Positions 11,564 to 39,535 of a DNA stretch of 64,000 nucleotides are shown here, piece after piece. The position numbers and the translations under genes were made by a program. The notes under the pieces are model-generated. The model ran no database searches and was not told the DNA's origin. It saw nothing but the letters and a program-made list of their open reading frames with translations. Origin of the DNA: a virus; the IMG/VR virus record IMGVR_UViG_3300046170_000299. One strand, 5' to 3'. How positions within the stretch are numbered: position 1 is the stretch's first letter; every line of letters starts with the position of its first letter.

Positions 11564-11609
11564 GGTAAACAAATGTAACGATCCCGTTTGGATTCCGTGA
11601 CATTGATAC

Positions 11610-11712
11610 GACGCCTTACCAAGACTAAACAGCGTCATTAAATAACAGTCTTTCATACCTCCGCCTGAGGGTGGCGAAGGAATATCATATCAGTGTTTCC
11701 CTGCACTCATAC
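11610..11712 (+). ncRNA. PhotoRC-II-like structured psbA leader
   Basis: Hairpins GACGC/GCGTC, CCTCCGCC-TGAGGGT-GGCGAAGG and AGTG/CACT directly 5' of psbA; resembles the PhotoRC-II motif as recalled. Confidence 0.7.
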
Positions 11713-16240: not shown

Positions 16241-16512
16241 TGAGTGCATCACAAACAGGAAACTGGGCAATCTTTTATAGACGAATTGATGATCCACTTG
16301 TGTGGCATACGATGAGACTATGGAGAAGTGATGGTGTGCTTGTGTCTGCTAAAACATATGATCAAGTTTATAAATTTAGACGCTTCAGAGAAGCGTGGGA
16401 GTTTGCAAAGAATTTAATTACAGGTGGAGAATTAGGTATACCTGTTTATGATGCTGAAGTACGCCGTGTTTGTAAAGCTAAAGGTGAAGCATTCTACCTA
16501 GCAGGAAACTAA
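16240..16512 (+). CDS. hypothetical protein
   Basis: TAATG-coupled 90-aa ORF. Confidence 0.7.
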   Translation: MSASQTGNWAIFYRRIDDPLVWHTMRLWRSDGVLVSAKTYDQVYKFRRFREAWEFAKNLITGGELGIPVYDAEVRRVCKAKGEAFYLAGN

Positions 16513-16513
16513 T

Positions 16514-16529
16514 TGTATTAAGAAATACA
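16514..16529 (+). promoter_or_regulatory. NtcA-binding site
   Basis: TGTA-TTAAGAAA-TACA is a perfect extended GTA-N8-TAC, 2 nt upstream of a TTGACA -35. Confidence 0.65.
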
Positions 16530-16531
16530 GG

Positions 16532-16560
16532 TTGACAACGCATACATAGTATGGTATGCT
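16532..16560 (+). promoter_or_regulatory. sigma70-type promoter driving the riboswitch cassette
   Basis: TTGACA-17-TATGCT with TG extension; predicted start near 16567, exactly at the aptamer 5' end. Confidence 0.75.
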
Positions 16561-16566
16561 TATACC

Positions 16567-16613
16567 ATCGTTCATCCCACTCTTGGGTGGGACGCAAGTA
16601 AGTCGCGGAACGG
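16567..16613 (+). ncRNA. glutamine riboswitch-like aptamer (glnA/Downstream-peptide family), copy 1
   Basis: CGTTCA-[TCCCAC..GTGGGA hairpin]-CGCAAGTAAGTCGCG-GAACG; P1 is CGTTC/GAACG. Confidence 0.7.
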
Positions 16614-16615
16614 AG

Positions 16616-16799
16616 CCGTTCATCCCATGCTAGAATTATTATTCTATTCATCACTCACATGTGCTCAAGCTGATAGCATTATGCTACGGATGAGAACAAA
16701 CGAGAATATTCCTCCCGAATATAAGGTGGAATTGATTGAGGTCATGAAGGAATCAACACCTGAATGCTACCCTTGGGACGCAAACGACTAAAGGAACGG
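16616..16799 (+). ncRNA. glutamine riboswitch-like aptamer, copy 2, with an ORF inside the P2 loop
   Basis: CCGTTC (16616)/GAACGG (16794) P1; TCCCA (16623)/TGGGA (16774) P2; 3' core GACGCAAACGACTAAAGGAACG. Confidence 0.6.
16627..16791 (+). CDS. 54-aa protein ending WDAND, nested in aptamer copy 2
   Basis: MLELLFYSSLTCAQADSIMLRMRTNENIPPEYKVELIEVMKESTPECYPWDAND. Confidence 0.7.
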   Translation: MLELLFYSSLTCAQADSIMLRMRTNENIPPEYKVELIEVMKESTPECYPWDAND

Positions 16800-16829
16800 A
16801 TTAAAATCCAACTACTTTAGGAGTAACTC

Positions 16830-16997
16830 ATGAACACACTTAATCAAATCAAGAAGCAGATCATCAAGAGATCTGCTCTACACGACGCTCAGATTCTTCA
16901 CACTACATATCGTGGTGTTAAGTATGATACAGGTAGTGTAGAATCTAAAGAGACCCATGGCACATTCTGCTATCGTGGTCAACTTTATAAAAAGTGA
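16830..16997 (+). CDS. DUF4278 / GifB(IF17)-like small protein
   Basis: MNTLNQIKKQI...HDAQILHTTYRGVKY...HGTFCYRGQLYKK with two YRG motifs; RBS AGGAG. Confidence 0.75.
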   Translation: MNTLNQIKKQIIKRSALHDAQILHTTYRGVKYDTGSVESKETHGTFCYRGQLYKK

Positions 16998-17012
16998 TTA
17001 ACTTACTTATCC

Positions 17013-17040
17013 AGAGAGGGTTTTAACCCTCTCTTTTTTT
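17013..17040 (+). terminator. rho-independent terminator closing the riboswitch cassette
   Basis: AGAGAGGG-TTTTAA-CCCTCTCT plus T run. Confidence 0.85.
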
Positions 17041-17185
17041 ATGAGTATAAACCAGTAGGCAATAATATTCGTTGCAATTTTTCTTTAATTGAATGTTCCA
17101 AAAATAAATAGTGGTAGAATTATGCGAGGTGGAAAAATGAACCCTTCTCTCCCCTTTATTATGGTTTATTGCATGGAGAAAATTA

Positions 17186-39255: not shown

Positions 39256-39277
39256 TTAGAGATTGATCATCTCTATA

Positions 39278-39443
39278 GGGAGTGACTGAATAAACTTACT
39301 GGCAACCGCTGGTTAAGGTGATGAGACACAGGTGGTGCTGCTATCTTAGGATATGAATCGATTTACCAATCGGGTCTCAGGCAAAGATGAATTACTCTGT
39401 AGTAATGCCCGTCTTTTGTTGGTACACAGGAATCCAACCTCCC
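39278..39443 (+). ncRNA. manA-like structured RNA
   Basis: GGGAG/CTCCC closing stem; internal GAGAC/GTCTC, CGAT/ATCG, AAAGATG/CGTCTTT and TTGG/CCAA helices; follows a tRNA. Sequence resembles the manA motif as recalled. Confidence 0.65.
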
Positions 39444-39535
39444 ACCCTTTTTATTTGAATAATCGGTAGCTTTACGGCAGAGCTAGCATCTTGCAAACAT
39501 AACCGTACCCATTGTAATCTTGCACAAAAAATCAA

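Follow-up and report, generated by a model that had tools for sequence, protein, structure and literature searches.

A conserved small gene nested in the hairpin loop of a glutamine-riboswitch-like aptamer of cyanomyoviruses

Riboswitch aptamers are usually viewed as compact non-coding domains lying upstream of the genes that they control. In IMG/VR record IMGVR_UViG_3300046170_000299, analysed as one stretch of 64,000 nucleotides (hereafter the window), two tandem glutamine-riboswitch-like aptamers and a DUF4278/IF17-like gene form a mini-operon of ~480 nt, and the second aptamer appears to be split around a complete open reading frame (ORF) of 54 codons. This locus raises the question of whether the two flanking stretches are halves of a single aptamer, whether the ORF between them is a gene, and how translation and RNA folding could share the same nucleotides. 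A sequence-only reading of the window had described the split geometry, the 54-codon ORF with its Trp-Asp-Ala-Asn-Asp (WDAND) end, the loop of ~146 nt and the short loop of the first copy, all of which the sequence and the list of ORFs confirm. On balance, we think it probable that a working split aptamer encloses a real gene.

A conserved gene in register with aptamer helices

The elements of the locus, where P1 and P2 are the paired helices of each aptamer and SD is the Shine-Dalgarno sequence, are as follows:
16567–16616, + strand: aptamer 1, compact; P1 16569–16573/16608–16612, P2 16575–16580/16587–16592 (6 bp), loop of 6 nt
16617–16626, + strand: 5′ half of aptamer 2; P1 strand CGUUC (16617–16621), A16622, P2 strand UCCC (16623–16626)
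16627–16791, + strand: nested gene of 54 codons, Syn9 gp197 family (T4-GC 430, phrog_504); stop codon UAA at 16789–16791
16774–16799, + strand: 3′ half of aptamer 2; U16774, P2 strand GGGA (16775–16778), junction CGCAAACGA, CUAAAG, P1 strand GAACG (16794–16798), G16799
16788–16793/16815–16820, + strand: SD-proximal helix CUAAAG/CUUUAG, which holds the nested stop codon and overlaps the SD
16819–16823, + strand: SD AGGAG
16830–16997, + strand: DUF4278/IF17-like gene of 55 codons (Pfam DUF4278, 23.7 bits; phrog_545)

Following a 4-nt linker from aptamer 1, the same 5′ strand repeats for aptamer 2, and the AUG (16627–16629) abuts its P2 5′ strand with no gap. The P2 loop then spans 146 nt (between A16627 and U16774), and the last six triplets of the ORF (UGG GAC GCA AAC GAC UAA, 16774–16791; W-D-A-N-D-stop) serve at the same time as P2 3′ strand, as junction and as the beginning of the helix that follows within the 3′ half. 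This next helix, CUAAAG:CUUUAG, encloses a small GGAU/AUCC hairpin (16798–16809), is paired in 99.8% of alignment cells and is also predicted by RNAalifold and by the minimum-free-energy (MFE) fold.

For comparison, we fetched 80 close loci, 21 diverse GenBank loci and 80 loci found via a different protein; 162 of these carry a gp197-type ORF. All 162 keep the split layout, with the AUG directly after the P2 5′ strand (a single extra U intervenes in one locus), so that the placement of the start codon within the P2 helix, first proposed for the window, holds at every locus. The P2 core is paired in 162/162 loci, P1 is intact in 160/162, and, S-CAM1 and S-TIM54 aside (see below), the ORF keeps one frame as it runs through the 3′ half. 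Because the 3′-half pattern occurs exactly twice in the 64-kb window, where shuffles give an expectation of 0.00, and because the layout recurs in 162/162 related loci, the arrangement lies far beyond chance.

The nested ORF is widespread. By tblastn, it is present in 316 GenBank phage records, nearly all of them Synechococcus cyanomyoviruses, down to ~40% identity, where it is annotated as hypothetical, as gp197 of Syn9 or as T4-GC 430, and IMG/VR holds at least 272 further copies. Its 72 distinct sequences range from 153 to 186 nt, all multiples of three, with indels only in multiples of three. The median ratio of nonsynonymous to synonymous substitution rates (dN/dS) is 0.19 (2101 pairs with dS > 0.1), and in the diverse GenBank set the median proportion of synonymous differences (pS) is 0.74 vs 0.34 for nonsynonymous ones (pN). 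Five residues (Leu5, Cys12, Glu35, Glu38, Cys47) are invariant among 43 representatives, and an AlphaFold2 model built on their alignment gives a two-helix hairpin (helices 12–24 and 30–43) with a mean per-residue confidence (pLDDT) of 80. Judged by its pattern of substitution, then, the ORF appears to be a real protein-coding gene because of its dN/dS of 0.19, its lengths in threes, its invariant residues and its confidently modelled fold.

One could instead propose that the 146-nt insert is an RNA domain in which an open frame arose by chance. The protein has no Pfam family, its PHROG entry (phrog_504) is of unknown function, no fold in the PDB matched it (E up to 0.001), and in the Atlas it falls only into unnamed clusters; a search of 5.8 billion proteins returned matches in phages and marine metagenomes only. 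This proposal nonetheless strikes us as scarcely credible, given the synonymous turnover, the indels confined to threes, the Cys, Glu and Leu residues held down to 40% identity, and the confidence of the structural model. As a separate observation, many gene callers report an 81-aa form of the protein (P0004, P0005 and others) that begins at an upstream start and reads in-frame through aptamer 1; this form is probably an annotation artefact of the hidden riboswitch.

Constraint from the RNA and a sister gene

If the coding end of the gene is also an aptamer strand, its codons should answer to the RNA. In the terminal D, A, N and D positions the codons are GAC (70/70), GCA (70/70), AAC (42/42) and GAC (68/70), whereas in the interior of the gene Asp is GAT 63 times vs GAC twice, Ala is mostly GCT and Asn mostly AAT. 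The same nucleotides also occur where nothing is encoded: in one locus identical aptamer 2 halves are joined by a UUCG tetraloop and in two others by a 19-nt loop, all without an ORF, and 59 IMG/VR loci with two short-loop aptamers in tandem (short/short) carry the same type-2 3′ half with freely covarying P2 stems. Because the terminal codons oppose the preference of the gene, and because the same nucleotides recur in non-coding copies, the RNA dictates the coding end, as had been suspected of WDAND. These compact, ORF-free orthologues, with the same 5′ and 3′ halves, likewise bear out the earlier claim that the two stretches in the window are halves of one aptamer.

Evidence for pairing comes from several directions. 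The non-coding P2 5′ strand changes from UCCC to UCUC or UCCU in 21/162 loci and in no other way, all of these changes remaining compatible with G. On our alignment (A1), the three helices are paired in 96.6% of cells, vs 31–55% when the partners are slid; RNAalifold independently recovers the long-range P2 and the downstream helix, and both the MFE and the centroid structures predicted for the window sequence contain the long-range stem. At the second position of the gp197 stop codon, the pair with the strand beside the SD is GC in 44, AU in 20 and GU in 8 cases, with no unpaired case, placing the nested stop codon in a covarying helix next to the DUF4278 SD. Across 42 representative loci, each <88% identical in protein to the others, the four pairs of the P2 core have a mean predicted probability of 0.60 in native sequences; permuting synonymous codons within each ORF lowers it to 0.30 and shuffling the interior to 0.31 (paired Wilcoxon tests against native, p = 3e-6 and 2.6e-5, respectively, values whose independence is overstated by kinship among the loci). 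In these folding predictions, therefore, synonymous sites in the coding interior appear to favour closure of the stem.

Aptamer 1, whose P2 varies with compensation among related phages, can itself carry a gene. In 83 loci, Syn9 and Syn19 included, its P2 loop holds the gp196 ORF (66 aa, phrog_6471; dN/dS 0.11), and in most gp196-type loci the AUG again directly follows the P2 5′ strand. Here the P2 strands and the stop codon change together (UCUC/GAGA with UGA, UCUU/AAGA with UAA, UCCU/AGGA with UAG), and the gp196 AUG pairs with the CAU that precedes its stop. Across the sequences compared, these are true compensatory substitutions; the helix encloses 198 nt, and the stop codon forms one of its strands. 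Similarly, in a single-aptamer IMG/VR locus, a 36-codon mini-ORF running through a type-2 3′ half and ending DAKAD-stop has UCU pairing with AGA. Covariation of the stems had been put forward as the test of the split aptamer: it is weak in the gp197-type stems, where only wobble-compatible changes occur, and clear in the sister gp196 of aptamer 1. Paralogy of the two nested genes was considered and set aside, as homology was not established (hhalign probability 3.9%; two Cys align at similar spacing).

Four architectures exist, written as aptamer 1/aptamer 2: short/ORF as in the window (94 loci), ORF/ORF (63), ORF/short (3) and short/short (59). Since all four occur, the ORFs behave as modules, acquired or lost against a constant background of aptamer halves and DUF4278 gene. 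In S-RIM2 (two loci), the 27-nt loop of aptamer 1 resembles both ends of Syn19 gp196, with ATG changed to ATT, and looks like the scar of an internal gp196 deletion. Among IMG/VR loci with single aptamers and P2 loops of middling size (L182–L246), we found, besides the 36-codon mini-ORF, an 8-codon ORF remnant, a 13-bp P2 without an ORF, and one deletion variant in which the C-terminal coding part of the nested gene has become fused to aptamer 1.

Relation to glutamine riboswitches and a proposed mechanism

What kind of aptamer is it? Glutamine riboswitches of type 1 (glnA RNA, RF01739) and type 2 (Downstream-peptide or Glutamine-II, RF01704) share with the present element a CGUUCA 5′ strand, a variable hairpin, an ACG(C/G)A junction and a GGAACG 3′ strand; a DUF4278/IF17-like gene lies downstream in both known riboswitches and in the present cassette, and the known ones occur in tandem (PMC2864571, PMC6212724), as here. 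The core is present in the two halves of aptamer 2 (CGUUC/GAACG helix, CGUUCA, ACG-C/G-A, GGAACG); its nucleotides and P1 are invariant in 160/162 loci and match upper-case consensus positions in the compact orthologues. In an Rfam search at permissive thresholds over 16400–17100 (700 nt), aptamer 1 scored 29.1 bits for Glutamine (gathering threshold 35; E 3.8e-4) and 25.0 bits for Glutamine-II (gathering threshold 33), both significant there; compact ORF-free orthologues of aptamer 2 reached 32.7 bits (threshold 35; E 1.3e-4) and 29.4 bits (threshold 33; E 1.1e-4), respectively. The element also has the placement typical of a glutamine riboswitch, in the 5′ leader of a DUF4278/IF17-like gene and with a covarying helix that overlaps the SD. 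The middle of its sequence is like type 2 and the GAAGGAACG end like type 1; on sequence likeness, it is best described as a putative relative of the glutamine riboswitches, a type 1/type 2 hybrid falling short of both thresholds. We do not class it as a member of the curated families RF01739 or RF01704 because of these scores and because glutamine binding is a prediction. The CUGAAG:CUUCAG helix could be a mask of the ribosome-binding site (RBS) in the OFF state or the counterpart of the type-2 pseudoknot P2.

Several observations weigh against a working split aptamer. All Rfam scores, for aptamer 1 and the compact orthologues alike, lie below the gathering thresholds, and split aptamer 2 gave no match in the searched 700 nt at E up to 10. 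None of the pairs in the long-range gp197-type stems has changed on both sides, the changes being one-sided and wobble-compatible. This lack is expected because the P2 3′ strand also encodes Trp-Asp; by the same token, with that strand fixed by its codons, conservation alone is no proof of pairing. The predicted P2 probability is <0.35 in about a third of the 42 representative loci, and, among distinct sequences, only 61% have the U of the AUG paired and only 81% its G. Together with the cost of a 146-nt loop in folding energy and time, the missing double changes and the missing Rfam match would suit halves that are relics, in which aptamer 2 no longer folds, the 5′ half serving as an initiation region and the 3′ half as coding sequence and as a coupling or SD-masking element. 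We hold this to be improbable: both halves are identical to those of non-coding compact aptamers, the non-coding 5′ strand shows only G-compatible C-to-U changes, the terminal synonymous sites are frozen, and native stems are predicted to close twice as often as codon-permuted ones. The ORF-bearing sister aptamer, moreover, covaries clearly, and the mini-ORF variant keeps its UCU/AGA pairing.

Two phages count further on the negative side. The ORF of S-CAM1 ends ~27 nt before an intact 3′ half, and S-TIM54 has UAG in place of the UGG Trp codon, a protein five residues shorter and an A opposite C in P2; the coding end is therefore separable from the aptamer. Such cases fit the view that the nested gene is a passenger, the P2 loop being merely permissive for small genes, the aptamer sensing glutamine and controlling DUF4278 as in the compact copies, and the overlap of codons with helices a matter of compaction. 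The modular gain and loss of ORFs, the truncated remnants, the shifted ORF end of S-CAM1 and the existence of weaker gp196 relatives in Prochlorococcus phages all favour it, and to this extent the other option raised at the outset, a microprotein gene inserted into the aptamer, has gained ground from the four architectures. We nevertheless consider a mere passenger unlikely. The register is strict, with the AUG directly after the P2 5′ strand in 162/162 gp197-type and most gp196-type loci; with no space in the loop for an RBS of its own, the nested gene cannot be initiated without involving the aptamer; synonymous sites are biased toward closure, and stop codons covary with the helices.

How might a split aptamer that encloses a gene work? 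Known glutamine riboswitches act at translation to turn DUF4278/IF17 genes ON, and ligand binding is thought to free a short helix masking the RBS (PMC6212724; PMC6698751). The present element is predicted to bind glutamine, and we infer both the direction and the strength of its control. Known glutamine aptamers have a variable hairpin loop directed away from the ligand pocket; since the P2 loop points the same way, the aptamer would tolerate an insert. From geometry and ribosome footprints, a small (30S) ribosomal subunit at AUG 16627 would cover the whole 5′ half of aptamer 2, and a ribosome terminating at 16789–16791 would cover the whole 3′ half and melt the CUAAAG:CUUUAG helix that overlaps the DUF4278 SD. 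With both halves covered, nested translation and a folded aptamer 2 would therefore be mutually exclusive, an argument for the start-codon masking and the unfolding by ribosomes that the sequence-only reading had proposed. A folded, ligand-locked aptamer 2 would hide the nested start codon; nested translation would reset the sensor and briefly open the downstream RBS, and its termination would favour initiation 39 nt downstream.

The logic that we prefer, a guess that could as easily prove wrong as right, is that the whole operon is ON at high glutamine and that ribosome transit resets aptamer 2. At high glutamine, aptamer 1 would keep its GAACG strand, leaving the adjacent CGUUC-UCCC-AUG free for initiation, and nested translation, then folding of aptamer 2, would each uncover the DUF4278 SD. 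When glutamine is low, the aptamer 1 3′ strand would pair with the aptamer 2 5′ strand, the SD-masking helix would form and both genes would be low. Alternatively, the locus may act as a toggle: low glutamine would switch on the nested gene, and high glutamine the DUF4278 gene. A further difficulty for the preferred logic is that a folded aptamer 2 should repress the nested gene yet switch the downstream gene on, which is awkward for simple co-regulation.

The low-glutamine state of the preferred logic calls on pairing between the aptamers. The GAACG of aptamer 1 can pair with the CGUUC of aptamer 2, and this inter-aptamer hairpin is present in the MFE fold. In two loci, L115 and L131 (about 715–735), aptamer 1 has CAACG and aptamer 2 has CGUUG, such that the innermost P1 pairs are broken and the inter-aptamer hairpin is perfect. 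These sequences suggest that aptamer 1 may control access to the nested start via the hairpin, whose evolutionary support amounts to a single event, another mark against the scheme. The same adjacency, complementarity, MFE hairpin and double change, which preserves only the inter-aptamer pairing, could also be taken to mean that the sensing unit is circularly permuted, built from two adjoining halves (3′ of aptamer 1, 5′ of aptamer 2) whose P1 the short linker would close, and that the distant 3′ half is not the partner of 16617–16626. We judge this very improbable and reject it for P2, where covariation follows the within-aptamer partner: in aptamer 1, GAGA, AAGA and AGGA on the 3′ side go with UCUC, UCUU and UCCU, respectively, on the 5′ side of that aptamer, and the 5′ strand that comes after remains UCCC. 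The inter-aptamer hairpin is more likely a ligand-free alternative structure than the sensor.

Three side observations concern the region around the SD. In eleven related loci, the interval from GGAACGG to the SD helix holds an optional expression-platform insert of ~30 nt (CGGAUCC-hairpin-GAGAAGGUU); the stem, nearly always under a GAAA tetraloop cap, shows free covariation (CAGC/GCUG, CUCG/CGAG, CUCC/GGAG, CACCC/GGGU), and the insert may be a docking element that aids the long-range fold. The window has only the small GGAU/AUCC hairpin at this position. The GUUCAU of the aptamer 5′ strands (16570–16575) is complementary to AUGAAC, the DUF4278 start in most phages (16830–16835), and is paired with it in the MFE fold; the pairing may mask the start codon in addition or may be coincidental, given the Met-Asn start, and the DUF4278 gene begins differently in several phages. 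Finally, a CCUCC anti-SD-like stretch inside the ORF (~16712–16719) was dropped as a candidate SD mask, being confined to one subfamily.

Setting of the mini-operon and comparison with known systems

By comparison of the region, the window derives from a T4-like cyanomyovirus close to S-RIM12 and Syn33 (genus Brizovirus), and its nested protein is 100% identical to the copies of the S-RIM12 isolates and Syn33. In those phages, the order runs from ribonucleotide reductase genes through one or more small genes to the cassette and then the transaldolase gene talC; the window differs downstream of the cassette, with other small ORFs after the terminator. The DUF4278/IF17-like ORF of the cassette scores 23.7 bits for Pfam DUF4278 (cut-off 25.3), matches phrog_545 at 1e-30 and has YRG motifs, and its S-SSM5 orthologue carries the DUF4278 annotation. 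The signals that frame the mini-operon are:
16515–16528, + strand: GTA-N8-TAC box, perfect to the NtcA-type consensus, 4 nt upstream of the −35 hexamer
16532–16560, + strand: predicted sigma-70-like promoter, TTGACA-17-TATGCT with TG extension (10/12 matches)
17013–17041, + strand: predicted intrinsic terminator that ends the mini-operon

Transcription is predicted to start at ~16566–16568, the first base of aptamer 1. The TTGAC...TAnnnT promoter pattern is found in 85/156 related loci, and GTA-N8-TAC recurs in 86/156 related upstream regions at varying distances, mostly 52–60 nt before aptamer 1; the box suggests that host nitrogen control of transcription may be added to the riboswitches. 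Elsewhere in the window, Rfam matched two transfer RNAs (tRNAs), a manA RNA (39257–39448, 170 bits) directly after a tRNA, and PhotoRC-II (11598–11693, 54.8 bits), the latter two being typical cis-regulatory RNAs of cyanophages.

The cassette suggests that these phages may read host glutamine to time the making of one or two small proteins and of an IF17-like factor that could be an inhibitor of glutamine synthetase, which would bear on how viruses steer nitrogen metabolism in ocean picocyanobacteria. A broader and more tentative proposal is that the P2 loop is a general gene slot in cyanophage glutamine riboswitches: a ribosome-reset nested-gene riboswitch in which an aptamer gates an inner start codon, every ribosome in transit wipes the sensor clean and for a short time frees the RBS that follows, up to three small ORFs (gp196, gp197, DUF4278) are chained by 35–38-nt half-aptamer spacers, synonymous codons are selected for helix closure, and phage riboswitches are systematically undercounted. 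Only two glutamine aptamers turned up in cyanophage genomes in a survey of how riboswitches are distributed, which took riboswitch use to be rare among phages (PMC5473149), whereas the split copies seen here are widespread in marine cyanomyoviruses, a whole class that covariance-model scans miss. The locus is also a clear example of synonymous-site selection for long-range RNA structure and a natural system for the competition of translation with ligand-dependent folding on one molecule.

An ORF inside a glutamine aptamer is not described in the searchable literature, whose coverage is incomplete, such that an earlier remark on long P2 inserts is possible. Known glutamine aptamers have a variable hairpin loop; in the present ones, that loop is a coding gene (146 nt, or 198 nt for gp196) with its start and its stop or last codons within helices, and the same bases serve as codon, helix and ligand-pocket scaffold. 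The novel feature would thus be conserved genes nested in an aptamer loop, in register with its helices.

Short ORFs in ligand-responsive leaders are familiar from mgtL in the Mg2+ leader of Salmonella mgtA and from the classical attenuation peptides, in which the position of the ribosome likewise decides RNA helices. Those ORFs sense charged tRNA or proline, and their peptide sequence is otherwise unimportant; the nested ORFs, by contrast, are conserved proteins under purifying selection and lie in the aptamer loop rather than the expression platform. Peripheral loops of group I and II introns, which are self-splicing ribozymes, also carry ORFs, in this case mobility genes (e.g., I-TevI in the T4 td intron), and there the likeness extends to a whole gene in a terminal loop of a T4-like phage RNA, long-range closing helices and modular ORFs. 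In the cyanophages, by contrast, the host RNA is predicted to sense a metabolite, and its helices are fused in register with the two ends of the ORF. Translational links between a riboswitch, a small upstream ORF and the gene after it are also seen with the cobalamin riboswitches of mycobacteria, in which the ORF is reported to follow the aptamer (bioRxiv 10.1101/2022.06.01.494293), whereas the cyanophage ORF lies inside it.

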